Shown piece after piece: positions 3,628-55,612 of a DNA stretch of 64,000 bases. A program made the position numbers and the translations under genes. Numbering within the stretch: position 1 is the first letter of the stretch; every line of letters begins with the position of its first letter. Below the pieces are notes generated by a model that was given only the letters and a program-made list of their open reading frames with translations, searched no databases and was not told where the DNA came from. This DNA comes from Octopus vulgaris (taxonomy: Eukaryota). Location of the stretch: positions 115,010,001 to 115,074,000 of the forward strand of contig OX597822.1 of assembly GCA_951406725.2 (NCBI GenBank), written 5' to 3'.

Positions 3628-4290
3628 ATTGTTGGCATCCTTTTTGTCTCGGGAGACAATGGAGTTGCGCATAAAATAATCTAGTCCGGCTTTTACATTT
3701 CATGTCCTAATACATCTCCTGCTGTGGCTGTGTAGTCCTATCCTGGACAAACACTCCTCTGGCAGGTGCCGCAAATGTAGCGAAGGCTTAGCCTGGCTGG
3801 TTGTAATGTCATAGTTTCTTGTTGACGTATTTTCTTGTCTTTTCTTTTCTCCTCTCTCTCTATGTCACTCCTTTGTTTTCTTTCTTTTATGGTACGTCGC
3901 CAATCTCCACGGTTGCTGGCAACTGCTTCCCAGTTGGTAATATTGATGTTGCAGGCATTCATTTCCCTTTTGCAAACATCCTTGTATCGAAAGAACGGTC
4001 TTCCCACAGACCTAGTGTCCCCTAGCAAGCTCTCCGTTGAGTATGTCCTTGGGGATTCTGCCATCTTCCATACAGCTAACATGTCCAAGCCATCTCATAC
4101 GTCTTTGTGTGAGGAGTGCAAACATGCTTGGTATCTTTGTTGGGGACATGATTCTGCCATGTGATGCGAAGGATTTTCCGGAGGCATCGCAGGTGAAAGA
4201 TATTTAGGTGACGCTCTTGGCGTGTGTATGGCGTCCAAGTCTCGCTTCCATACAGTAGAGTGCTAAGTACACATGCTGCATGGGCCCCAC
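3628..4290 (-). mobile_element. RTE-clade LINE 3' remnant
   Basis: ACVLSTLLYGSETWTPY..FHLRCLRKILRITWQ, GRPFFRYKDVCKREM..WEAVASNRGDWR and C-terminal YICGTCQR, which are typical RTE ORF2 C-terminal motifs; frameshifted. Confidence 0.85.
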
Positions 4291-4335
4291 TTCTCATGCA
4301 GTACCATTTGAACATTTGTACACATAGTCACTATC

Positions 4336-5956
4336 TTTTTTTTTTCTTAATTATCGTTTTTTTCCCAAAACTTTGTCCTTTCTTTTTTCCCTCTCTTTTT
4401 TTTAAACAATTAATTTTACTTTTTTTTCCTCTTTAACGCCTCATGTAAGGCTCCAGTTCTAACAGGTCGATTACTGGTGGCAGCTCGTTGAACTCCACCA
4501 GTGCTCCGGCTGGGTCAATTCTATCCCCGGACATGCCCCTAAGTTTCTTATAGGTTTCCCTATCGACCACAATGGCCTTCACACTCTCTGGGTATACGTC
4601 GTTTGGAAACTTTACTCTTATAATGTGCTCGAACTTTAAGATTGTTTTCTCCACCTCCTTGTTCTTGGAATAGGTCACGAAATTCCATTTGTTCCTGCCT
4701 CCTCTCGGTTTTCTCTTTTCTTCCTCCACTACCCTTCCTATTATAGATTCCTCTATACTCTTCTCTGAGACTGGGACCTACTCTTTCTTCGTCTCTGCTG
4801 TAACCAGTTTCTCCATTTCGTCCTCTTGTAGTTGAATTCCTGAGTCTTCCGTCAATTTACCTATCATCTTCATATTTGTTTCCTCCTTCTCTGACTCTTT
4901 TTCACACATCTTCTCAATTATTTTTTCCTTTTCCTTTTCCGTCTCACTTTTATCGTCTTTCTTTCTCGTTACCTTTTTCTTTTCCATTTCTTCGTTTTCT
5001 GATTAGTCGGTGGTGGGCTTACCCTACTGCTCCTCCTTCTTCTTCTTTCCACTAGTGTGAATTCTTCTACCACTGTTGTCTCATTATTCTCGCCTCTTAC
5101 TGCCTGTTCGACATTTTCTTGAATTTTTCTCTGTTGTTTCTGTGGACATCTCGCCTTCATGTGTCCCTTTTCACCACATTCAAAACACACAGGTGGTCTG
5201 CCCTCCACCTTCATTCTTAGTGAGAAACCGTCAGGCAACACTATCTCCTCGGTTATTCTATTGAGGTCTTCTACTGTTGTTCTGGTGGCCTTCAATATTC
5301 TGGCTCCGTCCTTCATGTTATACATAATGGCTGTCAGCTCAGGGGGCACTTGTCCCACCCGAACTCTCGCCACACGTTTTCCGCAATACGATGGCAAAAG
5401 AATCCATTCTCCCGAACGAATTGCCTCCGTCGCATGTCTTATTACTTCCTCCTCCGATATAAATCGCACATCCACAGTGGCAAACCTTCTGCCTCTCGTT
5501 CTGAAGGTTATAAACTTTTTAATGCCTTCCAGCACTTTTTCAATTTCCTCTCCTGCTGCTATTTCTATTTTCCCTGTGGCGACCTTCTTGGTCTTGTAGG
5601 TCACCGTTTTCTTTATTCCGCTGTTCGTCAGCTCTTCAGGTGTCGTTAACTTTATCGTTTCACCCTCCTTCTTTATCAGCTTCTCGCAAGCTTTCATTTT
5701 CTTGGCTTCGACTTTTATTTCAAAGGTCTCTAATGTTCTTTCCTCTGCTCCTCTTCCGGTTGCGGCTGCATAGCTGTGTCCACCCGCTGGCGGCTTCTTC
5801 ATTTTCCTCAACGGGAAAGTTTAACAACACAAAAATTAACGGTATAACAAACGGAGTTAACAGCGATATCAACGAACAGCAATAATCAACAATAAATTCT
5901 ACTCACAATGACAACTCAACTTCAATAACTCAACTTCAACGACTCAACTTCAGATG
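4336..5956 (-). mobile_element. ORF1-only non-LTR element, copy A (L1/Tx1-type ORF1, HAL1-like)
   Basis: ORFs 4969-5811, 4778-4987 and 4433-4729 form one frameshifted frame containing VEGRPPVCFECGEKGHMKARCP (CX2CX4HX4C). It ends in an A-rich tail near 4336-4400 with no RT or endonuclease motifs. Confidence 0.7.
4433..5811 (-). pseudogene. gag-like ORF1 zinc-knuckle protein (disrupted)
   Basis: RTRGRRFATVDVRF..LLPSYCGKRVARVRVGQVPPE..EGRPPVCFECGEKGHMKARCP, then a Lys/Glu-rich region and a C-terminal globular segment. Confidence 0.7.
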
Positions 5957-5978
5957 AAAGCAATTACACACAGGTTCC

Positions 5979-7651
5979 TTTTTCTTTATTACCCACAAAG
6001 GGCTACACACAGGGGACAATACAAACATTGGGGGCATAAAACATCACAATTACACAAAGTATGAATAAATGAAATATGAAAATGAAAAATGAAAGTGATG
6101 CTAACGGCCCCATCTGCTAGCATCACTTACCTGTCCTTCTTCCTTAATCCGGAATGAAATGCATATAATCCTCCAGTTTAGAATTATATCTCCTTTCCAG
6201 TTCAGACAATCTTCCCATCTTCAATTTTATATCTAACCAGTTTATAGTTTCTCCTTGCACATTCTTCCCCAAGTTCCTTTAATAGGTTTCCGGAATTACC
6301 GCGTACATTACCCCCACCCTGTCCCAACAGTCATTCCATTTTACTTTCCCCCAGTCTTTTATTATTTCCCTTACATCTTCTGTGTTCCAAATACCAAGTA
6401 TATTGGGCCTAGGATTTTTAGAGTTATGCTGTGTGTTTGCTTCTTTTTTGTTTTCTTGTTGGTGGGGAGCGGGTGGGTTAACTGTCTGCAGGGGAAGGGT
6501 GGGCCTCAGAGGGTGCGAGTGGTGTTGGGGTGGATTAGGGGTTCAGGACGATTCACTTTTCTCCTTCTCCTCCTTCTTTTGCCGTCTTCCCATTCTTTTG
6601 GTACTTTTTCCTCTTCCGTTGTATTCTGCTCCGTTGTATTCTGCCCCTCCTCGGTGGTCACTACTTCTCTTTGAGGTTCCAAACTTATTTCCTTTGATGG
6701 GTGAGGGCAGTTAGCTCTTATGTGACCTTTCAGGCCACACTTGTAGCAGTGCGGAGCTCTGCCTTCCACCCACACTCACATAAAAATATTTCCTATTTTG
6801 ATACTCTCTGCCAGTTGATCCAATATTTCGGCTTCCGCTTGCTCGTTCATTTCGAGAACTGCACCCTTCCAGCCTCCTTCATCCTTCACCGTGGCATGGA
6901 GAATGTATACTTCCTCCTCGCATCCAATGATGATTACTGCCACGATCCACTCGCCATCGATATTGGGAGGTATTCCCTCCTCGCTGATCCGGGTTGTCAT
7001 TCTACCCAGATACGGGGGCAGAAGGAACACCTTTCTGTCCTCACAGTCCCCGCCGCCATTCTTCTCGCTACACTTTCGTTCTCAAACTGGACCACTACGG
7101 TACCGAAAATTACACCTCTTGCCAGGAATACAATTTCTTCTTCAGTACTTTTCAGCGCCTCTTCGATTACCTCCATTCCGACTACTTCTATTTTTCGTTT
7201 TTCGTTAGCATAAACTCGGTACGTGATGGTCTTTCGTTCGTGCCATTCTCTTCTCTTTTGTGGCGGTGACAATTCCACTTCATCACTGACCTTTTTTACG
7301 AAAGCCTGATAGCTTGGCAACTTGGCCAAGTCTATTTCCTTCTCTATCGACCTTGTTGCTCGCGCGTATGTTGTTCCTAATTATTTGTCCATTTTCTTTA
7401 CAGCCCTTTCAAGCTCCTCTTCAGAGGTCGACAAATCCGACACAGTGAGACCTTCAAACATGTTTCCTCTTGCCATCTCTCCTTTTGGGAGGGGCAGACC
7501 GCTTCTTCCTTGTCTGTCTCTACACAGACAGACAAAAATCCAAAAATCGTTTAACAATAACGTTCAACGATAAAAATTAACAAATCAACAATTTAACCAA
7601 ATCAGCTACTCACAGGTTCAAAATAACGCAGTTCCAATTCGACTTCGCCGC
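5979..7651 (-). mobile_element. ORF1-only non-LTR element, copy B, with a 22-bp flanking direct repeat
   Basis: AAAGCAATTACACACAGGTTCC at 5957-5978 and 7652-7673. Minus-strand 3' end GTGGGTAATAAAGAAAAA. Frameshifted ORF from ATG 7476 (MARGNMFEG..) to VEGRAPHCYKCGLKGHIRANCP. Confidence 0.8.
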
Positions 7652-8253
7652 AAAGCAATTACACACAGGTTCCAAAAAACGACTACAGTCAAACTTCATA
7701 TAGATACTTTATGCTAGCTAATTTGCAGATGATCTAATGTAAAACCCGAGGTAAAGGGTATGTGCACAGCACCATCTGGACTATTCCATTTCTGCACTTT
7801 AATTTTATTTTTAATTTATTCCCATTCATGTGAAACCACTTATTCAAGTTCGAGTCATTGATGCAATTTTATACCAATTGCTACTTTTACTTTTAATTGT
7901 TATGTTACGATTTAATTATTGTATTATACTTTAGTTTGATTTTAATTATTACTTACTACATATAATTCAATTGTTATTATTATCTCTAATTTTTATTGTT
8001 AAAGTGAAAGTATCTGACATAAAAAAGAGAGATGTTTTTGTTTCACTTTTAACACGTAATACTGAAATAGTGGAGAAGATATGATATTGCTATGGGCAAG
8101 ATATGATATTGCTATGGGCAAGAAGTTGAACACTTTTTTTTGCCCATGACACTACATGGACCCCAAATAATGCATGTGTAAAGTTTGAATGAAATTGGTT
8201 GTGTAGTTCTCAAGTTTTAGGGAAACAGACAGACAGACAGACACACATTCTCA

Positions 8254-8270
<17 letters not shown>
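7652..8270 (-). mobile_element. Helitron-like element, 5' part
   Basis: Minus strand begins (TA)nAAAACTGAGAATGTGTGTCTGTCTGTCTG..AGAACTACACAACCAATTTCATTCAAACTTTACAC, the same style as the Helitron 5' ends at 10628 and 37230. Homologous to 45461-46057. Confidence 0.65.
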
Positions 8271-10578: not shown

Positions 10579-10627
<49 letters not shown>

Positions 10628-10918
10628 TTATATATAAAAGAGAAGTTGTGTATCTGTCTCCTACGATTTAGATTCCTAACTACTCCCACATTTTGCGGTG
10701 CAGTTTAACCAAAACCGGGTATCTTATAGTCGTGATTCATATCGAGCCCTTCTGGGTATTAGCGCGCGTCTACGATGAGTCTACGATTTAAAAAAAAATT
10801 ATCATAATTTTTTTCCATTTTTAATGCATTTTTTTGCTATTTTTTGGCTATAACTCTCTAAAAATGCTTATATAGTTATTTCCCTTACAAACCCGAGCAA
10901 CGCCGGGCGATACTGCTA

Positions 10919-10919
<1 letters not shown>
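10628..10919 (+). mobile_element. non-autonomous Helitron
   Basis: 5' TATATATAAAA..GTGTATCTGTCT, 3' hairpin CCCGAGCAACGCCGGG (10892-10907) and terminal CTAG|T. Second copy at 37230-37615. Confidence 0.85.
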
Positions 10920-10994
<75 letters not shown>

Positions 10995-14924: not shown

Positions 14925-15830
14925 ATTTATATATATATAACATTCTTTGTCTCTCTATCTCTATGTCTATCTGTTCCCTATGCATTCTCAAACGGCTCGA
15001 CCAAGTCAGATCAAATTTTACAAGGTAATAGTATCAGTCTCCGTGACTATCACCATGCATTTTGGTTTTTCTCATTTGAATTAAAACAATGTAACACTGG
15101 CGCTTATTCGGTATTACGTGTCAAAAGTGAAAGAGTAAGATTTACATTGTAATGTGATATAATATTGTTTCACTTTTATTCTTTCACAATTGATTCTAAT
15201 GTGTCACTTTTATTTTTTCACTTTTAATTTTAATGTAATAAGCCTATATTGTTTCACATTCATTGTTTCACTTTTAATTCTAATGTGATAACACTAAGAT
15301 AATTTTTTCTATTATGTTTATGAGACTTTCCCAAGATCTTTTAATGCAAGGACTACTTGAATTCTGGGGTCAATATAATCAACTAGCACAGAAGTGAGAT
15401 GAGACTCTCTCAAAATCAGCAAGGGCATGCTGCGGCACGTCAAATGGAGTCTCAACAGAGAAGGAAAATGAGACTTTCTCAAGATCAGCAAAGGCATGGG
15501 GAAGCACGTCATATGGAGGTGTCAACACTTCAAACGATCGGTCGTGTTAGAAGCAGGGCCGACCACCCCAAAGGAGCGAATATCCACTTGCAGCTTTTTG
15601 CTGCGTTCAAAATTCACATAGCCCCCCCCCAATTTTCTATGACAGGTTATGGCCTGGAATACTCCAAAAGGGCGCATGACATGTCGCTTTGTCGAATTAG
15701 CCCATTATTTACTCCACAAATGTTTTGTCGTCAATACTGCACTTTCCCGTATCACCTGTTTCAACATAATTAATAAATACACAAACTATGCCATTTTAAT
15801 CCCCGAGCAACTCCAGCTGTCTCATACACA
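14925..15830 (+). mobile_element. Helitron remnant with RepHel N-terminal repeat fragment
   Basis: 5' CTATGTCTATCTGTTCCCTATGCATTCTCAAACGGCT..AAATTTTAC; repeated RLSQ(N/D)QQ.H..AR.ME (15399-15520), resembling the Arg/Gln-rich N-terminal repeats of Helitron RepHel; CCCGAGCAAC near the 3' end as in the other Helitrons. Confidence 0.55.
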
Positions 15831-23240: not shown

Positions 23241-23261
23241 AATTAATAAACACGTCCTTTT

Positions 23262-24640
23262 TACTATGATAGAAATTGTTTGTTTTTAGATTCCACATTC
23301 GAGTTACCTCTATTTCCAGGTCTTTGTATTTTGAAAGTCTCTCCATTTCTTTTAGAGAAAAGTTGTCATCTGCTGGTATTGATACATCAATTAGAAAGCA
23401 ATTTTTTTCTTCATGATCTCTGACAACTATATCTAGTCTGTTGGCCTTAATTTCTCTATCTCTGTGTATTGGCATATCCCAGAATATGGTTGCTTTCTCG
23501 TTTTCTGTGACCTTTTCTGGTGTGTGCCTATACCATCTTTTTTTTCTGTTGTTATTCCATAACGTTGGCATAGCTTCCAGTGTATGTAGGACCCAACTCT
23601 GTCGCGTCTGTGAATATATTCCTTCTTAGACAGGACTGGGCAGCCAGAGATATGATTTATTGTTTCTTGTCCATCTCCACATATTCTGCAGTTACTTGTT
23701 ATATTTCTTTTCATTACATGTTTTTGCTAATTTCTGGTGGAGAGGCTTTGGTCTTGTGCTGCAATTAAAAATCCTTCTGTCTCTGTTTTGAGCCCTGAGC
23801 TTCTCAACCATTGCTGGGATTTTTCTTTGTCTATTTCTTTTGCATTTAGTTTAGTCCAGTATTTGCCATGAAAGGGTGTTCCTTGCCATCGTTTTATAAT
23901 GATCTGTTGCTGATCTAGTTTTAGTTTTGATTTCATTTGCTTTATAGCTTTTGATGTCTTCTTCTTCTTCTTCTTCTTCTTCTTCTTCTTCTTCTTCTTC
24001 TTCTTCTTCTTCTTCTTCTTCTTCTTCTTCTTCTTCTTCTTCTTCTTCTTCTTCTTCTTCTTCTTCATATCTTTTAGGTTGTATGATTTCTTGTTTGTAT
24101 TGACAGCTTCCTTAAATACTGAGAACAATTTTTTTTGTTTTGCTCGTGTTTTGCCGCTATTTGTATCAGTTTTCCTTCCTTCTGAAGTAGATATTTTTGC
24201 AGTCCTATTGTGGTTATTTTATAGTAGTTTTCCAGCTGTATAAGGCCTCTACCACCATCTATACGTTGTATGTATAGCCCTTCTATGTCAGATTTTGGGT
24301 GATGCATCCTAGATCCTGTCATTATTTTTCTTGTTTACCTATCTATTTTGGTCAGTTCATTTAGTGTCCAGTTAAGGATATTGTAGCTGTAACTTGTAAC
24401 TGGGACGGCTAAAGTGTTGATACCTATTATCTTGTTTTTAGCATTGAGCTCTGTTTTCAGTATTGATCTGACTCGTCTATAATATTCTTTTTTTATTTTC
24501 TCTTTCATTTGTGTGTGTTGTGTCTTATCTAGTTCATGGATTCCTAAATATTTGTAAGTTTGGCTTTGGTCTAATTCTCTTATTTCATTGGCTTTATCTA
24601 GTGTGATGTTGCCACTCTTAACTAGTTTTCCTCTTTTCAG
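23262..24640 (-). mobile_element. R4/Dong-like LINE fragment (RT thumb, CCHC finger, RLE)
   Basis: HHPKSDIEGLYIQRIDGGRGL, ETEGFLIAAQDQSLSTRN, CRICGDGQETINHISGCP and KANRLDIVV..LIDVSIP; interrupted by (CTT)n at 23957-24066. Confidence 0.9.
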
Positions 24641-26164: not shown

Positions 26165-27420
26165 TTCAGTTTTCTTCTTAGTTTCAGCCCGAAGGTTGCG
26201 GCTATGTTGGAGCATCACCATTTGCTTTGCTACACTTTCACTAAACCTCATCTGATGCGTGGCATTTGGTGAATAAGAGAGTTTGATGTTGCTGCCCTTA
26301 TCTGTGTTTCTTACCTTGAGGTAGGTTCATCGGGAACTCTTGACAGGAAGAGATCCAGTTTTGTTTTGAAAACGCCTACATCCATGCCAAGCAGGTCACT
26401 CAGGTTTAGTGGGAGGATATTGAAGAGCTGTGGACCCTTGAAGTCCAAACTGTTGTAGTATATGGTCCTGTATTCTAATGGCAATTTGGGGAGTTTTGGT
26501 AGCATGCAGTGGCGCCCCGTCCTGCAGCTTGTGTATCTGGCAATGCCACAATTTGGTACAAGTTCTTCTAGGATTTTCCTGATGTATATTACTGCGTATC
26601 TTTCCTGCCTTCGTTCTAATGAGTAGTTTTAACTTTTTCTGTCTCTCCCAGTATCTGACATGTTACATTGAGACAATCTTCTTTATGTAGCTTCGCTAGA
26701 CAGCCTCGAGTTCCGTCGTTAATTTAACAATGTTTGATGAGCACAGTTGGGAGTAGTAATCCAGAGGACCATCATGGTCTCCTGCTCTCCCGTTTTGAGA
26801 GTTCGAAGGATTCATCCGGCCAAGCGTCTGCATTTTTTGCCAACTTGATAATATACACCTGGAAAGATGCATCATTATTTGTGTCGATGCCTAGATTACG
26901 CTCTGATTTTGATTCAGGGGTCGCAATTCCTCCTGGGCCAGTGTATCTTGTCTTTTTTCCATTGAGCTTCGTGTGTTCGTACTGCAGAGCTTGGAATTTT
27001 CCAGCATTAAACTGCATAATATTTTCCTCTGCCCACCTGCATATTGTGTCCAACCCCCGTTGCAGATACGCAACCTCTCCAACGTTCTGTATCATCTGAG
27101 TGACTTTTGTATCGTTTACATAGTTTGGTATGCTACTTGAGCAGCTGAGGGCATGTATGAGAAGGCCATTATGAATAGCAGCGGCCTCGAGCCAGTGCCC
27201 TGTGGAACACTACTCCTTATTTGTGTTTCATTGGACTTCTATCCTTTAGAAAGTGATGAAGCCATTCTCCAAGTTTTCCAACAATGCCAAGATTATGCAG
27301 CTTGTGACATGGTTGTGCACAACATACATATTACTTGGATGTTTAAATTATGCTATACACGGTGATAATAACTTAATTTTTGACTGCTTCATAAAGTGGG
27401 TGAATATTTTATTGCTTGGG
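26165..27420 (-). mobile_element. CR1-type LINE remnant (RT C-terminal half to 3' tail)
   Basis: VPQGTGSRPLLF, YVNDTKV, LQRGLDTICRWAEENIMQFNAGKFQ and KGPQLFNILP..FKTKLDLFLSRVPDEP. Confidence 0.85.
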
Positions 27421-27589
27421 AAAGAAAACACGGTACACGGGCTACAGCGAGGAGCGGTCAGTATATTGTGTGAGTTTCCGCCAGAAGCATCACTCCCTTG
27501 CTTTTTCTGCACATCAAAAATCCTGGAGAAATGTGTTTACATTACTATAATTGCAACCACAGCCATGGTTTTCTGACACATACACTCAT

Positions 27590-27665
27590 GCATGCATACA
27601 TACATACATACATACATACATACATACATACATACATACATACATACATACATACATACATACAT

Positions 27666-27713
<48 letters not shown>

Positions 27714-30700
27714 TTATATATCAAAGAGCAAATAGGAAATACTATATAAACAGATGCACATCTGCACAAATCACATACACAAAGATTACATCACACTTGA
27801 AAGAAGATACATTGACAAGCATTTATCCCTGCAAGTATAAAAGCACGCATACATAATTACATACATACATACATACACACATACGTACATACGTATATAC
27901 ACACATACACACATACATACATACTTACATACACACACATACATACATACACACATACATACACACATACATACATACGTATATACACACATACACACAT
28001 ACCTACATACTTACATACACACACATACATACATACACACATACATACACACATACATACATATATACATACATACATACACACATACATACATACATAC
28101 ACACATACATACACACATACATACACACATACATACATACATACACACATACATACATACATACACACATACATACATACATACATACATACACACATAC
28201 ATACATACATACATACATACATACATACATACACACATACATACATACATACACACATACATACATACATACATACATACATACATACATACATACACAC
28301 ATACATACATACATACATACATGCATGCATACATACATATATACATGCATACATACATACATACATACACACATACATACATACGTATATACACACATAC
28401 ACACATACATACATACTTACATACACACACATACATACATACACACATACATACATACATACATACACACATACATACATACATACATACACACATACAT
28501 ACACACATACATACATACACACATACATACATACATACATACATACACACACACATACATACATACATACATACATACACACACACATACATACATACAT
28601 ACATACATACACACACACATACATACATACATACATACACACATACATACATACATATGATATATACATACATACATACATATCTACATACATACATACA
28701 TACACACATACATACATATATACATACATACATACACACATACATACATACATACACACATACATACATACACACATACACACATACATACACACATACA
28801 TAGATACACACATACATACATACATACACACATACATACATACATACATACATACATACATACATACATACACACACACATACATACATACATACATACA
28901 CACATACATAGATACACACATACATACATACATACACACATACATACATACACACATACATACATACACATATACATACATACATACATACATACATACA
29001 TACATACATACATACATACACATACATACATACATACATACACACATACATACACACATACATACATATATACATACATACACACACACATACATACATA
29101 CACACATACATACACACATACATACATACATACACACATACATACATACATACATACACACATACATACACACATACATACATATATACATACATACATA
29201 CATACATACACACATACATACATATATACATACATACATACACACATACATACATACATACATACATACACATACATACACACATACATACATATATACA
29301 TACATACATACACACACATACATACATATATACATACATACATACACACATGCATACATACATACATACACACATACATACATACATACACACACACATA
29401 CATACATACATACACACATACATACATACATACATACACACATACATACATACATACATACATACATACATACATACATACATACATACATACATACATA
29501 CATACATACATACACACATACATACACACATACATACACACATACATACATACATACATACATACATACATACATACATACATACATACATACACACACA
29601 TACATACATACATATGATATATACATACATACATACATACATACATACATACATACATACACACATACATACATACATACATACACACATACATACATAC
29701 ATACATACATACATACATACATACATACACACATACATACATACATACATACACACATACATACACACATACATACATATATACATACATACATACACAC
29801 ATACATACATACACACATACATACACACATACATACATACATACACACATACATACATACATACGTACATACGTATATACACACATACACACATACATAC
29901 ATACTTACATACACACACATACATACATACACACATACATACACACATACATACATACGTATATACACACATACACACATACCTACATACTTACATACAC
30001 ACACATACACACATACACACATACATACACACATACATACATATATACATACATACATACACACATACATACATACATACACACATACATACACACATAC
30101 ATACACACATACATACATACATACACACACATACATACATACATACACACATACATACATACATACATACACACATACATACATACATACATACATACAT
30201 ACACACATACATACATACACACATACATACATACATACATACATACATACATACATACATACACACATACATACATACATACATACATGCATGCATACAT
30301 ACATATATACATGCATACATACATACATACATACACACATACATACATACGTATATACACACATACACACATACATACATACATACATACACACACATAC
30401 ATACATACACACATACATACATACATACATACACACATACATACATACATACATACACACATACATACACATACATACATACACACATACATACATACAT
30501 ACATACATACACACACACATACATACATACATACATACATACACACACACACATACATACATACATACATACATACACACACACATACATACATACATAC
30601 ATACACACATACATACATACATATACATATATACATACATACATACATACATACATACATACATACATACATACATACATACATACATACATACATACAT

Positions 30701-32134
30701 ACACACATACATACATACATACACACATACATACATACACACATACACACATACATACACACATACATAGATACACACATACATACATACATACACACAT
30801 ACATACATACATACATACATACATACATACATACATACACACACACATACATACATACATACATACACACATACATAGATACACACATACATACATACAT
30901 ACACACATACATACATACACACATACATACATACACACATACATACATACATACATACATACATACATACATACATACATACACACATACATACATACAT
31001 ACATACACACATACATACACACATACATACATATATACATACATACACACACACATACATACATACACACATACATACACACATACATACATACATACAC
31101 ACATACATACATACATACATACACACATACATACACACATACATACATATATACATACATACATACATACATACACACATACATACATATATACATACAT
31201 ACATACACACATACATACATACATACATACACACATACATACACACATACATACATATATACATACATACATACACACATACATACATATATACATACAT
31301 ACATACACACATACATACATACATACATACACACATACATACATACATACACACACACATACATACATACATACACACATACATACATACATACATACAC
31401 ACATACATACATACACACATACATACATACATACATACATACATACATACATACATACATACATACATACATACATACACACATACATACACACATACAT
31501 ACACACATACATACATACATACGTACATACATACATACATACGTACATACATACACACATACATACATACATATGATATATACATACATACATACATACA
31601 TACATACATACATACATACATACACACATACATACATACATACATACACACATACATACATACATACATACATACATACATACATACATACACACATACA
31701 TACATACATACATACATACACATACATACATACACACATACATACATACATACATACATACATACACACATACATACATACACACATACATACACACATA
31801 CATACATACATACACACATACATACATACATACATACATACACACATACATACACACATACATACATATATACATACATACATACACACATACATACATA
31901 TATACATACATACATACACACATACATACATACATACATACATACACACATACATACACACATACATACATATATACATACATACATACACACATACATA
32001 CATATATACATACATACACACATACATACATACATACATACACACATACATACATACATACACACACACATACATACATACATACATACATACATACATA
32101 CATACATACATACATACATACATACATACATACA
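27590..32134. repeat. giant imperfect (ACAT)n array with ~1.97-kb higher-order duplication
   Basis: Direct reading; landmark variants recur about 1960-1980 bp apart. Confidence 0.95.
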
Positions 32135-34032
<1,898 letters not shown>

Positions 34033-35370
34033 ACGTACATACATACATACACACATACATACATACATACATACATACATACACACATACATACATACAT
34101 ACATACACACATACATACATACATACATACATACATACATACATACATACATACATACATACACACATACATACATACATACATACATACATACACACAT
34201 ACATACATACATACATACATACATACACACATACATACATACATACATACATACATACATACATACATACATACATACATACACACATACATACATACAT
34301 ACATACATACATACATACATACATACATACATACATACATACATACATACATACATACATACATACATACATCACATACATACATACATACATACATACA
34401 TACATACACATACATACATACATACATACATACATACATACATACATACATACATACATACATACATACATACATACATACACATACATACATACATACA
34501 TACATACATACATACATACATACATACATACATACATACATACATACATACATACATACATACATACATACATACATACATACATACATACATACATACA
34601 TACATACATACATACATACATACATACATACATACATACATACATACATACATACATACATACATACATACATACATACATACATACATACATACATACA
34701 TACATACATACATACATACATACATACATACATACATACATACATACATACATACATACATACACACATACATACATACATACATACATACATACACACA
34801 TACATACATACATACATACATACATACACACATACATACATACATACATACATACATACACACATACATACATACATACATACATACATACATACATACA
34901 CACATACACACATACATACATACATATGATATATACATACATACATACATACATACATACATACACACATACATACATACATACATACACACATACATAC
35001 ATACATACATACATACATACACACATACATACATACATACATACATACATACATACATACATACATACATACATACATACATACATACACACATACATAC
35101 ATACATACATACATACATACATACATACATACATACATACATACATACACACATACATACATACTTACATACACACATACATACATACACACGTACATAC
35201 ATACATACATACGTACATACATACACACATACATACATACATATGATATATACATACATACATACATACATACATACATACATACATACATACACACATA
35301 CACACATACATACATACATACATACATACATACACACATACATACATACATACATACATACACACACACA
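34033..35370. repeat. imperfect (ACAT)n array
   Basis: Direct reading. Confidence 0.95.
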
Positions 35371-35593
35371 TAAACGTATTTGAAATCAGAGGTCACCATA
35401 ATGGTAAGCTGTAAGTGGCTGGAGTAGAGCCAGCTTCAGAAATGGGTGTATACACATACGAGGATGGAGATGAGGAGCGGTAGGTGTAGGGCACAGAAAG
35501 AGAAGGGAGTGTATATTGCGTCCGGATGAAGGATGGGCAGTATGATAGTTATGCATGAATCATCATGCACACATACATACATACACACACATT

Positions 35594-37186: not shown

Positions 37187-37723
<537 letters not shown>

Positions 37724-38687: not shown

Positions 38688-39088
38688 TTCTTTTCTACTC
38701 TAGGCACAATGCCCGAAATTTTTGGGGAAGGGGGCCAGTCGATTAGATCGACTTTAGTACGCAGCTGGTACTTAATTAATCAATCCTGAGAGGATGAAAG
38801 GCAAAGTCGACCTCGGCGGAATTTGAACTCAGAACATAATGACAGACGAAATACCTATTTCTTTACTACCCACAAGGGATTAAACACGGAGAGAACAAAC
38901 AAGGACTGACAAACGGATTAAGTCGATTATATCGACCCCAGTGCCTAACTGGTACTTATTTAATCGACCCCGAAAGGATGAAAGGCAAAGTCGACCTCGG
39001 CAGAATTTGAACTCAGAACGTAGCGGCAGACGAATTACCGCGAAGCATTTCGCCCGGCGTGTTAACGTTTCTGACAGCTCGCCGCCTT
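38688..39088 (-). mobile_element. dimeric tRNA-derived SINE, family S2
   Basis: Head AAGGCGGCGAGCTG..GAGTTCAAATTC; central GGTCGACTTTGCCTTTCATCC..AAGTACCAG occurs twice (resembles the Meta domain, from recall); two different 3' tails. Confidence 0.85.
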
Positions 39089-39212
39089 AATGGAAGTAAT
39101 TAACGCCTTGGAGGTACGATTTATATAAAAGGGCGACCATATTCCACTTCATTCATTACAATTTCATGCTATCTTGCAGATATTTAAAAAAAAGTTACCG
39201 TATGAATACACA

Positions 39213-40767
39213 ATGCCTAAAAGGAAATCCTATTCTGTAAAAGAACAGTTAAATCTGGTTTACCGCATACGAAATGGCAATACCAAAGCCAAACTATCGA
39301 GAGAGATCGGTGTTCCAGAGTCCAATCTGTGTAGTTAAAGACGAGGCTAACCTCAGGAGTTATGTAAATACAGTTGTGAGGGCCTAACGAGGAAGAAGGC
39401 CAGGATTACCACTGACAGTGAACTTTAGAAAGCAGTTTTCACCTGGTTTGTCCAGGAGCCGAGTGGTGGCACACACCTGTCACGTGCTATTATTAGAACC
39501 CAAGGCAGAGAAGTTTCCTAGTCAGAGCAACCTGACCAGCCTGACCAGCAGAACTTTCTAGCCAGCAAGGGATGGTTGTACAAGTTCCGGAAGCGACATG
39601 GCACAGGTGCTGTAAAGATCAATGGTGGGCAGAGATCAGCAGACAGCCAAGCTGGAGATGACTTCCCAGCTACCCTGAAGCAGCATATGGAAGCAGAGTC
39701 CCTCAACCCAGAACAACTGTATAATGCAGATAATCCGGCCTCAACTAGAAGATGCTACCAAACAACACCCTAGCAGTAACAACAAATGCCCATCAGACTT
39801 TGGGCTACAAAAAGGTAAATAACAGACTCGCCATCCTCTTTGTCTGCAACGTGACAGGGGCCCACAAGCTTAAACCCCTGGTTGTGGGCATGTTTCGATC
39901 ACCCAGGTACTTCGACCATGTAAACATGAACAATCTACCAGTGTTTTACAAACACTCAGCCAGCTCATGGATGACAGCCAGCATATTTGAAAAATGGTTC
40001 TTCAAGTCATTTGTCTCTAGTATCAGGAGCCACCATAGGAGCCTCAACCTGCGGGAGAAAAGCATCTCCCTGCTGGATAACTGCTCCGCCCACCCACAGG
40101 GAGACTTCCTACAGAACAGAGATGGCTAGATCAAGGTCCTCTATCTACCCAAGAATACAACAGCAAAATACATCACTATGGTGTTGGCATCATTCAAGCC
40201 TTCAAAACTACCTACAAGAAGGGGCTCATCCTGGAAATGATAGAATCTCCACTTAGTGTTCCAGACTATCTGAAGCACCTTACCATCAAGGATGCCAGTT
40301 ACTTGTCAGGCAGAGCCTGGGCTTCAGTGACAACCAGGACCATTGCCAACTGCTGGAACAAGGCTCTTGGTGTAGCCTTCCCACAGCCCCAACAGCCAGA
40401 ATTAGGGTCATAAAAAGAGGAATTCATGGTATTCACTGAGTAGGAGGCCAGGGCAGCAGAACAACGTCTAGACGATCACCTAGAGGATACAATAACCCTG
40501 CAAGACTGGGTTAACAGGTAGAAAGAAGCAGAGGAAGCCATTGTGGAGCAGATTAATGAGTAGCCAGAAGATGACACAGAGGAAGCGGAGACACCAGCTC
40601 CAGCCAAGTCCCCCGCAGAGGCTGTCTCACACCTCAAATGGCTTATAGAATACACTGAGTGTGAAGACTATGACCGTCTATACCACGCACCGAGGAACCT
40701 GCTCAGGCAGACACAGATCTAAATGAGGAAGGGACTGTGCCAGAAGCTGACAGACTTTTTTATGTGA
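39213..40767 (+). pseudogene. pogo/Tigger (CENP-B-like DDE) transposase, disrupted
   Basis: MPKRKSYSVKEQL HTH, FLASKGWLYKFRKRHG, LYNAD, NVTGAHKLKPLVVG..SPR, SSWMTASIF, LLDNCSAHP, LPKNTT and C-terminal QKLTDFF; several stops and frameshifts. Confidence 0.9.
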
Positions 40768-40859
40768 TTGAATAAGAAACAATTAAATGCGAACTTTCAT
40801 ACACTGTAACTTTATTAATTAAACATACATTTAAGGGCTTTCAAATCATTCACTAGGTG

Positions 40860-42200: not shown

Positions 42201-42289
42201 CACACACACACATACATAGATACATACATATGAAACGGGGGAAAATGAGGGCAACAGCAACGCCCGCCGGTTGCTGTATACCCGAGCAC

Positions 42290-43850
42290 GTTGTTCTTTT
42301 ATAAAATATTTCAAAGCAATAAACCTCATTACAAAAACAACATTAAGGAGGCAATGCACCTCTTCCATTGACTCCATACGAAGCCACTTTGAGGCAATAT
42401 ACCGCTTACTCACATCCATTCAGGTATCAAATTAGAATCTTCTTCCCCGGCCAGACTCCACGCCTCAGAAAAACACCTGGACGGTTCCAAGTCGGGTCAA
42501 TTTAACATAAATCTATAGGTATCCTTGGGGAAGGAATCCATTATCCTGAACAGTTCGTTCTCCCTCATTACCGTCGCAGCCACCTGCGAAGGCCAGACAG
42601 GGTCCTCCGTGCGGGATAGGATCCCCTCCCTTCGGCCCTTCATTTTGAGCTTGTCAACAAAGCGCTCCAATGTCCCTGCCTTATAGAAGAGGACCATAAA
42701 TTCCTCCTCCATATCACGGAGGGCCTGTACAATCTCCATCTTTAGTGGCACAACTCCTACCAAAGATGATTCGGGACACGCCGGCAGTGTATCATCAACC
42801 GCAAGCGATGTCCAATTTTACTGTTTTTATTTTTGTTCCTTTGAGCCACGGGAGGGTGGAATTCCTCCGCCTTGTCCAGCAGATCCTCCTTTTCTCCCGC
42901 AGCCCTCGGTTCCTTCGCTGGACAACTATTGTTGCCCACCTTTCGTTTTCTTCCTTTTTTCGAGGAGGCTTCCACCTCCTCGACTTCCTCCTTCTCTCCC
43001 TCCAATGAGGGAGCAGGGAGTAGTACTTCTATTAACTGCTCCAGGACCCTATTTTCGTCCTTGGGGCAGTTCTTCTGGATATGACTGGGTTCCAGGCACA
43101 GGTGACACTTGGTGGAGCGTCCCTCAAGCATCACCGGATACCTAGACCCGGTCATCCTTAAAAAGTCTGGAAAAACCAGAATTTTCTGCTGATTGGGTTC
43201 ATAGGGTAAATACAGCTTTTGACTCCTCCCAATCAAACGCAGGCAAATTTTTACATTGAGTAGCTTGGTACTGCTGCCACCCAGACCCCGGCAGATAGTG
43301 TCTTCTATCCACTCGGATTCAATTCCAGGTGGCAAACCGCAGACCCAAGCCCTCGTCAACATCTTCCCAGAATAAGTGGGAAGGAACAAAATTTCACTGC
43401 CCTGCAGGGGCAGGCTTGCGAATTCGCAAGCTTCTTCGGGGTAGTCAAACAGCAACCACACCGTTGCAAATATGACCCCCCGAGAGAAATTTCTCTCGGG
43501 GGGTCACTTTCTTCTATCGAAGACATTTTAACAAAAATACTTCCGTATAAACGGTGAAAATATTGCCAATTTCCCCAAACAGGGACACAATTCAATTTTT
43601 AAACAATAACCAAAGCTCCTTCTCCCAAAGGGGGGAGGGTTACGGTTTACAATTATTTAACAAATGCAACACAACAACGCTTTCCTTACGAGGAACCAAC
43701 AAACGTGATAACAATAGTTAAACAGTAATAATAATAACAACAAACCTTACGGTGAATCAAAAAGCAGTAGTCAGTAGAAGCTATAGTCCTTTATGGATAA
43801 GAAATAAACCAAAAGCAGTACTCAGCAGTAGCGTATGTTCGAGAAAACAG
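42290..43850 (-). mobile_element. ORF1-only non-LTR element, copy D (divergent family member)
   Basis: LFLPTYSGKMLTRAWVCGLPPGIESEWI..LEGRSTKCHLCLEPSHIQKNCP and an acidic tract; no RT motifs; boundaries approximate. Confidence 0.65.
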
Positions 43851-43857
43851 ACGTTAC

Positions 43858-45460
43858 TTGTTTTGTTATTACCCATAAAGGGCTGACATAGAGGGGGACA
43901 TTACAAACATTGCGGACACAAAACATCACAAAAATACAGAAACGTATGAAAGATGAAAAATTGTGAAAATGAGAAATGAAAGCGATGTTAACGGCCCCAT
44001 CCGATGACATCACTTACCTGTCCTTCCCTATATCGGTATAAAAAAACATGTAGTCCTCCAGTTTCATCCCATATATGTCTTCCAGTTCATATCTCTTATC
44101 CGGTTCAATTGTTTTCCTAATCAATTTATAACTTTTTTAAAGTTTTTCCTTGAGTTCTTTTTCTTCCTCCTCTGATATTACTACATAAATCAACCCCGCC
44201 AAATCCCAGCTGTCTTGCAATTCCACCTTTCTCCAGTCCCTCAATATTTCGCGTATTTCTTCCTTGTTTATTACACCTAATATATGGGGACGAGAATTCT
44301 TAAAGTTATCCTGTATGTCTGTGTTAGCTTTTTTGTTTTCTTGTTGGTAGGGAGCGGGTGGGTTCAGTGTCTGCAGGGGAAGGGTGGTCCACAAAGGGTG
44401 CGGGTGGTGATGTGGTGGGTTGGGGTTAAGAACAGTTTGCCTTTTTCTCTTTCTTTTCCTCCTTCTCATGGATTCCTATTCTGCTGGTAATTCCTCCTCG
44501 TCCACTTGCTTCTCTTCCGCTGAATTCTGCTCATCCTGGGTCTCTCTACCTCTCTTGCTGGTTCTTTTGTTAGGAGAGGACAGTTAGCTCTTATGTGGCC
44601 CTTCAAGCCTCATTTGTAATAACGAGGAGCTCTGCCCTCCACCCATACTCTCATAATGATGTTTCCCATTGCTATATTCTCGGCCAGTTGTACCAACACC
44701 TCCGATTCCGCCTGGACATTCATCTCCAGTACTGCTCCTCTCCATCCTCCCTCGTTCTTCACCGCGGCATGAAGAATGTCCACCTTATCTTCATTAGCAC
44801 TGATGATGGCTGCCACAATCCACTCTCAGTCTATGTCTGGTGGTATTCCCACCACCCTGATCCGGGTCGTCCTCCTTCCCAGATACGAGGGCAGAAGGAT
44901 ACCTTCTCCGACTTTATTGTTTTCGCCGCCATTCTCCTTGCCACTTTTTCGGTTTTAAATTGTACAATCACGGTGCCGAACCCAACGCCTCTTGCGAGAA
45001 ATGCTACCTCCTCTTCTGTCATTCTCAGTGCTTCCTCTACCATTTCCATGCCGAGCAAATCTATTCTCCTTTTTTCGTTAGCGAATACTCTATACGTAAT
45101 GGTCCTCTTCTCACACCAGTCTCTTCTTTTCCTTGGCGGCGACAATTCAACTTCACCACCGACCTTCGTAACAAATTCTTGATAACCTGGCAACTTAGCC
45201 AGGTCTATCTCTTCTTCCGTTCACTTCGTCGCTCGTGCGTATGTTGTTTTCTCTCCGAGTGCTCTGCCCAATTTCCTCACTGCCTTTTCCAGCTCCTCCT
45301 CAGAGGTCGACAGGTCCGACTCACTGAGGCTTGTAAAAACATTTTTCCTTGCAATTTTCTCCCTTAGTGAGGGGCAAACCGTTTTTTCCTTGTCTGTCTC
45401 AATACAGACAGACAAAAATCAACAATACCGTTTAACAACATTTGATAAACAATAACAGGC
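43858..45460 (-). mobile_element. ORF1-only non-LTR element, copy C (same family as B)
   Basis: SDLSTSEEELEKAV..ELSPPRKRRDW..FLARGVGFGTV..VWVEGRAPRYYK.GLKGHIRANCP; 3' end CCCTTTATGGGTAATAACAAAA. Confidence 0.8.
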
Positions 45461-46057
45461 AAAGCAAGTACACACAGGTTAAAAAAAACGACTACAGCCA
45501 AACTTCATATAGATACTTAATGCTAGCTAATTAGCAGGTAATCTAATGTAAAAGCCGTGGTGAAGGGTATGTGCGCAGCTCAATCTGGACTATTCCATTT
45601 CTGCACTTTAGTTTTATCCTTAATTTATTCCCATTCATGTGAAACCACTTATTCAAGTTCAAGTCATTGATGCAATTTTATACCAGTTGCTACTTTTACT
45701 TTTAATTGTTATTTTACGATTTAATTATTATATTATACTTTAGTTTGATTTTAATTATTACTTACTACATATAATTCAATTGTTATTATTATCTCTAATT
45801 TTTATTGTTAAAGTGAGAGTCTATGAGAGCTGTTTTTGTCTCATTTTAACACGTAATACTGAAATAGTGGAGAAGATGTGATATTACTATGGGCTCGCCC
45901 TAGGCAAGAAGTTGAACTTTTTTTTGTCCATGACACTGCATGGACCCTAAGTACGGCATGTGTAAAATTTGAATGAAAATGGTTATGTAGTTCTCAAGTT
46001 TTAGGGAAACACACAGACAGACAGACAGGCACACATTCTCAGTTTTATATATATAGA
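45461..46057 (-). mobile_element. Helitron-like element, 5' part
   Basis: Minus strand starts A|TCTATATATATAAAACTGAGAATGTGTG (canonical Helitron 5' TC after A); homologous to 7652-8270. Confidence 0.7.
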
Positions 46058-53165: not shown

Positions 53166-53675
53166 ATATACACATATACACACACTCACGCATATTTATA
53201 TATATATAATTAAAAGGGCAGGCAACAGGTTGCTCTGCCGCATACCGAAAGAATTAGAAATGGCAGTCAGAGACTGTTTATTTCCATTTTCTACAAGTGG
53301 AGGCTCCATATACGACATAACCCTGCGATTCACATACGCAAATAAACGAAAACAATCTCTTACCGTTAATGGTGAACATGTTTCTAGATCGTAGGCGAGA
53401 AATTGCCTAAAGTCTTTCGTCAGCACCATCTTCGTTAGATTTATCAAATGCCACCAGCCTCCACCTCTGATCAGGCGTCATCAGATGGTGGGGGGAAGTG
53501 TGCATAGGTTAAAACTAAGTAAACGACTGAGACCGTAAATTTTCCCTCCAAAATTCTGCCATGCGCACCACTGGTATAATCGCAATGGAGTAAGAAATCC
53601 AATTGGTAATATAATAAAAGGGTAAGTAATTTTTTCGATGGTTTTTTAGACAACCCTTTTATTATATTACCAATT

Positions 53676-55091
53676 ACATACATACACACATACATACAAA
53701 CATACATACATACACACATACATACATACACACATACATACATACATACACACATACATACATACATACACACATACATACATACACACATACATACATA
53801 CATACATACATACACACATACATACATACATACATACATACATACATACATACATACATACATACATACATACATACATACACACATACATACACACATA
53901 CATACATACATACATACATACATACACACACATACATACATACACACATACATACATACACACATACATACATACATACACACATACATACATACATACA
54001 TACATACATACACACATACATACATACACACATACATACATACACACATACATACATACATACATACACACATACATACATACACACATACATACATACA
54101 TACATACATACATACATACACACACACATACATACATACATACACATACATACATACATACATACATACATACATACATACATACACACATACATACATA
54201 CATACATACACATACATACATACATACACACATACATACATACACACATACATACATACATACATACATACACACATACATACATACACACATACATACA
54301 TACATACATACATACATACATACATACACACATACATACATACATACATACATACACATACATACATACACACATACATACATACATACATACATACATA
54401 CATACATACATACATACATACATACATACATACATACATACATACATACATACATACATACATACATACACACATACATACATACATACATACATACATA
54501 CATACATACATACATACATACACACATACATACATACATACATACATACATACATACATACATACATACATACATACATACATACATACATACATACACA
54601 CATACATACATACACACATACATACATACATACATACATACATACACACATACATACACACATACATACATACATACATACATACACACATACATACATA
54701 CACACATACATACATACACACATACATACATACATACACACATACATACACACACATACATACATACACACATACATACATACATACATACACACATACA
54801 TACATACACACATACATACATACATACATACATACACACATACATACATACACACATACATACATACATACATACACACATACATATATATATACATACA
54901 TACACACACATACATACATACATACATACACACATACATACATACACACATACATACATACATACATACACACATACATACACACACACATACATACATA
55001 CATACACAGATACATACATACATACACACATACATACATACACACATACATACATACATACATACACACATACATACACACATACATACAT

Positions 55092-55160
<69 letters not shown>
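53676..55160. repeat. imperfect (ACAT)n array ending in (CA)n
   Basis: Direct reading. Confidence 0.95.
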
Positions 55161-55164
<4 letters not shown>

Positions 55165-55166
<2 letters not shown>

Positions 55167-55612
55167 CAACATTAGATATGTACATATATAAACACTAAGG
55201 TACTACATGAGTACCTATATCGCTAAAAAAATAGAAGTCAAAAATGTCTTCTGTACCACCGAATACTCACAAATATTTTACAGACACGATAGGAAAAAAT
55301 ATCAGTGAACAATAATGTCTTACCTCTACTGGGTCAAAACAAGAAAATGCTTGTCAACCTGGTACCGGTTTCGAGGTAAGGCATTATCATTGTTCACTGA
55401 TATTTTTTCCCTATCATGTCTGTCATAGATTTGTGACTATTCGGTGGTACAGAAGTATTTTTTGACTTCTGTCATTAGCGATATAGGTACTCATGTAATA
55501 CCATTGTGTTTATATATGTACATATCTAATATTGTATGTATATATTTTATTAATTTGCCTGTACGGCTGATAATTCGCTTACCACTCGTGATGGTATTTT
55601 AATATCATCCCT
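55165..55612. mobile_element. inverted-repeat element (Penelope-like inverted structure)
   Basis: Arms 55165-55326 and 55373-55536; the spacer ends in TACCGGTTTCG (minus strand CGAAACCGGTA). Confidence 0.75.

Follow-up and report, generated by a model that had tools for sequence, protein, structure and literature searches.

How do protein-coding elements that lack a reverse transcriptase (RT) come to sit, in head-to-tail pairs, at one position of a high-copy non-coding repeat? The question is raised by a 64,000-nucleotide stretch of the Octopus vulgaris genome (assembly GCA_951406725.2, contig OX597822.1, positions 115,010,001 to 115,074,000; hereafter the window). Here two copies of a Helitron-like repeat, H and H', are each followed by two elements whose single gene resembles the first open reading frame (ORF1) of long interspersed nuclear elements (LINEs). 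A first-pass annotation had described two of the four elements, B and C; it omitted A (4336-5956) and D, the ORF1-only relatives directly behind them. We consider it likely that all four are non-autonomous ORF1-only LINEs, probably derived from the Tx1 clade, which inserted independently at a single site.

Paired elements at one position of two repeat copies

The order on the minus strand is H, 22-mer, B, 22-mer, A and an RTE-like fragment at the first locus, and H', a site resembling the 22-mer, C and D at the second (Table 1). Both window copies of H bear such a head-to-tail pair (H-B-A and H'-C-D). The pairs hold three divergent ORF1-only families and are short, interstitial and 38 kb apart. 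All window copies are decayed, and as an instance of the system the window is modest.

The exact 22-bp direct repeat reported earlier around B is present, and the bases next to it differ on both sides; among shuffles of 4336-8262, any repeated 16-mer appeared in 1 of 200. C lies, as had also been claimed, at the same position of the second Helitron-like copy, its 5' end adjoining a homologous site identical to the 22-mer at 19 of 22 bases. The first base after the 22-mer is the common start of A, B and C, with D starting elsewhere, and A and B share it despite only ~28% amino acid identity. Because B's two 22-mers match each other at 22/22 bases and C's site at 19/22, the repeat is best read as a local duplication made when B inserted between H and A, with A already in place.

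The 5' untranslated region (UTR) of B holds a further, diverged copy of the target region (7628-7599; 24/30 ungapped to 7652-7681), with a score reached by 1/1000 and 0/1000 dinucleotide shuffles at the two sites. Since the flanking 22-mers are still exact, this inner copy predates the insertion of B, and it adds support for a long association with the site. Another copy in the sequencing contigs described below shows a similar 5' extension (one contig, run X3). A, C and D lack an inner copy in their 5' regions, and a split target in the 5' region of D scored no better than shuffles (776/1000).

At both loci, a TATA-like motif begins 29 nt before the site (7702 for H). This spacing is weak evidence, as 71 of 571 positions in H are preceded by a TATA-like motif at 25-33 nt, and the two loci represent one family. 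A pattern scan of a metagenome collection with the core of the 22-mer returned 0 matches.

Table 1. Features of the two loci and a SINE-like element with a related tail (positions within the window)
Feature	Position	Strand	Description
H	7674..8262	minus	5' part, high-copy non-coding Helitron-like repeat
22-bp target site, upstream copy	7652..7673	minus	flanks B's 5' end
Older diverged target-region copy	7599..7628	minus	within 5' UTR of B
Element B	5979..7651	minus	5' UTR, one broken ORF (7476 to 6144), 165-nt 3' UTR
22-bp target site, downstream copy (exact)	5957..5978	minus	separates B tail and A 5' end
Element A	4336..5956	minus	second ORF1-only family; A-rich 3' end
RTE-like LINE 3' fragment, high-copy	3650..4335, left end approximate	minus	adjoins A's 3' side
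H'	45483..46057	minus	second copy of Helitron-like 5' part
Homologous target site	45461..45482	minus	19/22 identical to 22-mer
Element C	43859..45460	minus	B relative, same ORF1-only layout
Element D	~42300..43858	minus	third family; 3' end uncertain
SINE-like element	38853..39090	minus	3' tail resembles B's tail

B and C diverged before their host copies

Aligned in full, H and H' are identical at 523/562 positions (93.1%; Kimura two-parameter distance, K2P, 0.073), compared to 1160/1582 (73.3%; K2P 0.337) for B and C. This difference in identity is significant (Fisher p=3e-26), also when the UTRs of B and C are taken alone (83% identical; p=1e-5 vs. H/H'). The first-pass annotation had argued against one co-duplication from 60-nt samples counted by eye. 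Its counts of 55/60 for the Helitron part and 41/60 for the ORF1 part proved exact, and the full alignment likewise finds the two parts unequally diverged.

We also obtained the substitution rates between B and C that had been proposed as a check. Over 295 codons in four ungapped blocks, non-synonymous divergence (dN) is 0.19 and synonymous divergence (dS) is 1.66 (bootstrap interval 1.11 to saturation), for a dN/dS of 0.117. This ratio shows that ORF1 was subject to purifying selection between B and C in the past. The dS exceeds the divergence of H and H' more than 15-fold. With a K2P of 0.073 on one side and a dS of 1.66 on the other, the B and C lineages must have split long before the H copies, and this far deeper divergence excludes a single co-duplication. 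No strand-biased A-to-G cluster was found between B and C (93 vs. 76).

The ORF1-type protein

The annotation of B as encoding only a CCHC-knuckle ORF1 was correct. Its single ORF comprises an RRM-RRM-like region, a CCHC knuckle and a C-terminal domain, with no RT, and a scan for RT and endonuclease motifs gave two matches in the window, neither in the reading frame of an A to D element. The ORF of B has 2 internal stops and, by three-frame translation, ~4 frame changes, and its zf-CCHC match (E=8e-4, 19.8 bits) falls just below the cut-off of 20.8. The match in A is stronger (E=7e-5); the ORF of A (5802 to ~4433) has one frameshift, one stop and in-frame deletions, and is homologous from N- to C-terminus to the O. 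bimaculoides protein P0006. C is more decayed than B, its knuckle destroyed. D is 61.5% identical to the O. sinensis protein P0013, and the start of its ORF is broken at a 34-bp perfect palindrome (43473-43506), a fold-back in which one arm is D coding sequence and the other an inverted copy.

All four elements are mutually homologous, with 25-35% amino acid identity between families by tblastn (E 1e-5 to 1e-12), and a hidden Markov model of 57 homologs matched 9 of the 1441 stop-free segments in the window, all within A, B, C or D. The elements form at least three families (A, B/C and D), so that of the earlier proposal of one non-autonomous ORF1-only family, the ORF1-only layout stands as a family trait and the number does not.

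An AlphaFold model of residues 1-278 of A (mean pLDDT 78.5) contains an RRM fold at residues 55-144, for which the best clean match is the La RRM (Z 9.5, root-mean-square deviation 2.4, 82 residues aligned). A second, partly deleted alpha/beta unit follows, and then the CCHC knuckle. Foldseek gave no match at E<=0.001, its top rows being RRM proteins. The listed structure matches included no L1 ORF1p chain or other L1 ORF1 structure, and the listed Pfam matches no L1 ORF1 family; such absences do not exclude an L1 origin. Tandem RRM-type domains with a CCHC knuckle are a trait of Tx1 ORF1s, and other clades have similar ones. The architecture of A to D is of this LINE ORF1 type and does not name a clade.

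A profile search collected 647 proteins at E<=0.001. Every named homolog of the A protein (6/6) is from O. bimaculoides or O. sinensis, and 6 of 10 further homologs carry Octopus names; in annotations these ORFs pass for ordinary Octopus genes, labeled “uncharacterized” or “CCHC-type”. Three homologs (P0045, P0103 and P0150) appear joined to WD40, RGS and LDLa domains in gene models, probably through gene-model artefacts or exonised insertions. Searches with a B segment and with alignment A2 found no homologs of greater length or with fused domains, which is weak evidence. The C-terminal domain is conserved in the A family, and an Atlas search with it returned no named family. Atlas clusters of ZCCHC3 RBD1/RBD2 with zf-CCHC scored 0.87-0.88, below 0.9, and serve as a lead only. 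ZCCHC3 is probably linked to Tx1, although we did not find this link in print. The available part of PMC9004415 does not mention ZCCHC3.

Separately, the 5' UTRs of B (7510-7535) and C (45390-45415) share a conserved inverted repeat (22/26) ~35-60 nt before the start codon.

3' ends, tails and a related SINE

B ends 165 nt after its stop codon, and B and C, 83% identical here, both end 165-170 nt past the stop. No ORF2 lies between ORF1 and the tail in B; C has the same layout, which is less certain in D. The 3' ends of A and D are poorly defined. In a predicted 3' hairpin shared by B and C, 15/15 pairs hold, with one two-sided change, although this compares two sequences only. Folding of the whole 3' UTR is notable for C (z -2.9) and not for B (z -1.0). 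Just 3' of the ORF, B and C (6125-6134 and 44012-44021, minus strand) share an identical, perfect 5' splice-site-like motif that forms one arm of this hairpin.

The “AATAAA plus A tail” described earlier for B is borne out in part: AATAAAG is present, but only five A's follow, within a terminal segment shared with a short interspersed nuclear element (SINE). Over its last 47 nt, B aligns with the tail of a SINE-like element (38853-39090) at a level that 0/300 shuffles reach, and the bin with B's tail has a contig depth of 3.4x10^5 in run X1. This element lies within the head of a related SINE (window 38690-39090); the sequence past its tail matches its own head, indicating nesting in the same orientation. 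The available part of a study of octopus SINEs names no partner LINE (PMC4824008).

The host repeat

H' opens with TC after an A at 46057, a clean A|TC Helitron-type 5' end, and in H the 5' end merges into a (TA)n tract that masks this hallmark. HLE1 Helitrons have TC after A at the 5' end and a hairpin with CTRR at the 3' end (PMC11417382). Non-autonomous HLE1 Helitrons are resembled in the TC after A of H', in the non-coding nature and very high copy of H, and in a 5' end that H shares (25/28 nt) with a window element at ~37230 ending in CTAG. They differ from H and H', which have no detected 3' hairpin-CTRR and no RepHel partner seen (PMC11417382). We call H Helitron-like because the 5' hallmark is found in H' only and the 3' end was not found. 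Of the earlier claim of a Helitron host, then, the 5' half is supported and the 3' half was not found behind either pair; the identity of H as a Helitron rests on its 5' end, and its 3' part may be deleted.

An Rfam scan of the window gave 0 matches at the gathering score, so that the target is no curated RNA gene. Pattern scans with the high-copy H motif gave 0 matches in each of the metagenome, viral and genome collections. Other non-coding Helitron-like repeats in the window (37230-37616, ending in CTAG; 10612-10987; ~14930-15830) show only weak alignment to H and are free of ORF1 elements, and their comparison with H yielded no empty site or 3' end. A GC-rich hairpin at 42255-42276 (minus strand) lies right behind D's apparent end, with no CTRR after it.

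To look beyond the window, we compared contigs from four (X1 to X4) of the 24 runs listed, which represent 3 studies and no more than 4 samples, with 4150-8262, noting that summed contig depths are not copy numbers. H reaches summed depths of 2-7x10^5 in X1, compared to 147-2858 in most ORF bins, a difference of two to three orders of magnitude. Two bins inside the B ORF are also high, which indicates that bins can be inflated by short matches. Contigs of relatives cover 30/30 bins in 4/4 runs. A third B-family 5' UTR is joined to the 22-mer at the same place in 3/4 runs, by one contig each; the short side of this junction has 29-30 letters, below our 31-letter bar, making it a hint.

How the pairs may have arisen

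The observed features agree with those of the HAL1-like class: an ORF1-type protein, no ORF2 and a multiplied family with a constrained ORF1. We propose that the elements were inserted by target-primed reverse transcription (TPRT) using enzymes borrowed from a full-length LINE, probably of the Tx1 clade. The partner's endonuclease would nick just past the T-run, and the 3' hairpin and tail would prime reverse transcription. The resulting duplication would rebuild the site, so that the stack would grow at its Helitron-proximal end, as the position of B between H and the older A suggests. An ancestor of B may itself have sat at such a site, with read-through from the flank adding target sequence to its 5' end, much as has been proposed for the 5' extension of SINEU-2B (PMC4494074). 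The retained ORF1 protein (ORF1p) is predicted to bind and package its own RNA and may partner the proteins of the autonomous element.

Several observations weigh against this proposal. Only 1/4 elements, B, has a target site duplication; A is followed by the RTE-like fragment without a 22-mer at its 3' flank, C by D without a 22-mer copy at its end, and D by unrelated sequence, so the 3' junctions of A, C and D lack the duplication expected from precise targeting. The 1.5 kb that follow A and the 1 kb that follow D yielded no Helitron 3' half or hairpin-CTRR. Nor was an empty site with a single 22-mer seen in the contigs of the 4 runs, and no loose end at 7652 or 7674 was among the 24 listed of 1586; of 45 joints, 15 were listed. 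In X3, a B-type tail runs into a B-type 5' UTR in one contig, with no 22-mer between them; in X4, H is met at 7808, ~135 nt off the site, by low-complexity D-like sequence in 6 contigs (by eye). The tails are not shared throughout: C's match to the SINE tail is at chance level (reached by 123/300 shuffles), A's match to B's tail is marginal (13/300) and D's tail has no match (289/300). The window contains no autonomous partner, and an endonuclease or RT domain was found in 0/30 homologs scanned, of 150 listed among the 647. Finally, the Tx1 label derives from the sub-threshold Atlas lead, since the elements themselves hold no RT. The missing duplications and Helitron 3' ends might be due to loss of sequence from a repeat-dense region, to blunt insertion or to template jumping. 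Still, independent arrival at one nucleotide of two repeat copies, the core of the earlier claim of homing to a Helitron, is supported, while the duplications expected from targeting are lacking at three of four 3' junctions.

A more tentative extension, which we regard as possible but doubtful, is that the site is a transcription start within the Helitron and that a long-standing and varied guild of ORF1-only elements lands there to borrow its promoter, ~30 nt behind the TATA-like box. Read-through copies of the landing site in the elements' 5' ends, such as the one in B's 5' UTR, would then supply new landing sites, giving rise to polar multi-family stacks at dispersed loci. A different and rather unlikely explanation is that the elements bring the 22-mer with them as a 5' leader or promoter module, perhaps together with all of the Helitron-derived head, and that families have swapped it. 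Pairs would then form by landing before a neighbor's leader or by template jumping rather than by homing to free Helitrons. The usual TPRT pattern is the reverse of the fixed 5' junction (A, B and C) and variable 3' junction seen here, which this explanation accommodates, as it does the lack of a Helitron 3' half at either locus and the possible start site that the TATA-like motif places at the 22-mer. Depth is equivocal: position 7724 is only ~2.6 times as deep as 7486 in X1 (2767 vs. 1069), in keeping with a leader, but ~30 times as deep in X4 (3009 vs. 96). In 4/4 runs, the depth of bin 7600-7737 is greater than that of bin 7462-7599 by a factor of 22-74, though spurious short matches can inflate such values. 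What weakens the leader explanation, which the first-pass annotation had itself raised, is that B's 22-mers are identical across the family boundary between A and B when the closer relative C has 19/22, and that H' begins at a clean A|TC end.

We think it improbable that the elements inserted as full-length LINEs and lost ORF2 only later. Such a loss would fit the decay of all four copies, the ill-defined 3' ends of A and D, and the internally deleted B-like contigs (joint 6114 to 6445) that occur in 4/4 runs. However, B and C, at a dS of ~1.7, have the same short 3' UTR, hairpin and tail right after ORF1, a shared junction that separate deletions would not produce twice, and the duplication closes B off. 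Capture of ORF1 by a Helitron, once, followed by spread through rolling-circle transposition or segmental duplication, seems to us highly implausible. One continuous 2.3-kb self-alignment does span B+H and C+H', H' has an intact Helitron-type 5' end and a GC-rich hairpin lies behind D. Yet identity jumps at the junction from the lower value of B/C to the higher one of H/H', even for the UTRs, the dS of B/C far exceeds the divergence of H, the second members of the pairs differ (A vs. D), and no hairpin-CTRR end was found. The identity jump and the dS refute capture as a single event; later carriage of a loaded Helitron is possible as an add-on to independent insertion.

Relation to known systems

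Non-autonomous LINEs that retain ORF1 have been described in the Jockey, L1 and CR1 clades (PMC5786205, PMC5753468). HAL1 (L1), Ag-Sponge (CR1) and HeT-A (Jockey) resemble the octopus elements in that a single ORF1/gag-type gene stands without an RT, the 3' end is LINE-type, mobilization in trans is presumed and there are several independent lineages. By contrast, the available parts of these papers name no Tx1-derived example and no target at one base of a DNA transposon. The head-to-tail arrays of HeT-A are telomeric (PMC13534243) and the octopus pairs are interstitial; promoter borrowing, if it occurs, would make the pairs HeT-A-like cooperative arrays away from telomeres.

The closest likeness in targeting is among Tx1 families and their SINE passengers, which target Mariner, piggyBac, Harbinger and long terminal repeat elements (PMC4494074). 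Examples are crocodilian Tx1-Mar and SINEU-3 in Mariner-N4_AMi, often in tandem around the target site duplication, Tx1-9_AMi in Harbinger and Xenopus Tx1L in Tx1D, and some SINEU-2 copies have a 5' extension derived from the flank (PMC4494074). The fixed region of another transposon, the tandem arrangement around a duplication and the target-flank 5' extensions all seem to be paralleled at the octopus loci. However, the known passengers are non-coding SINEs, unlike the octopus passengers, which encode an ORF1 that purifying selection has maintained. “Helitron” occurs 0 times in the available text of PMC4494074, whereas the octopus host is Helitron-like, with a passenger of unproven clade.

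In O. vulgaris, 13 L1-Tx1 families have been active recently (PMC13282606, Table 1). The available parts of two cephalopod repeat papers list L1-Tx1 and Helitrons and contain neither “ORF1” nor “nested” (PMC13282606, PMC8967140). A search of literature titles and abstract starts, with Repbase and subscription papers outside it, found no ORF1-only elements targeting a Helitron. Site-targeting ORF1-only elements in a Helitron are thus most likely an unreported combination of known habits. If this is true, the protein-coding ORF1-only class of L1, CR1 and Jockey extends to a site-targeting system in a mollusc, and rolling-circle transposons join the known targets of LINEs. Because several families dispensed with RT and yet maintained ORF1 under purifying selection, the long-debated role of ORF1p in an element moved in trans becomes testable; the question is whether it packages its own RNA or recruits and steers the partner's machinery.

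Other features of the window

The fragment beyond A, which we presume to be RTE-like, has a 112-residue stop-free frame at 3741-4094 and a depth of 2.8x10^5 in bin 4150-4287 (X1). A decayed transposase-like reading frame at 39200-40770 is presumably pogo/Tigger-like. Fragments resembling other LINEs lie at 23242-24218, 932-1544 and 26263-27209, and we take these to be R4/Dong-like and CR1-like. Very long compound microsatellite arrays of ATAC/GCGT-type units (27573-35380 and 53675-55195) dominate the self-alignment of the window.

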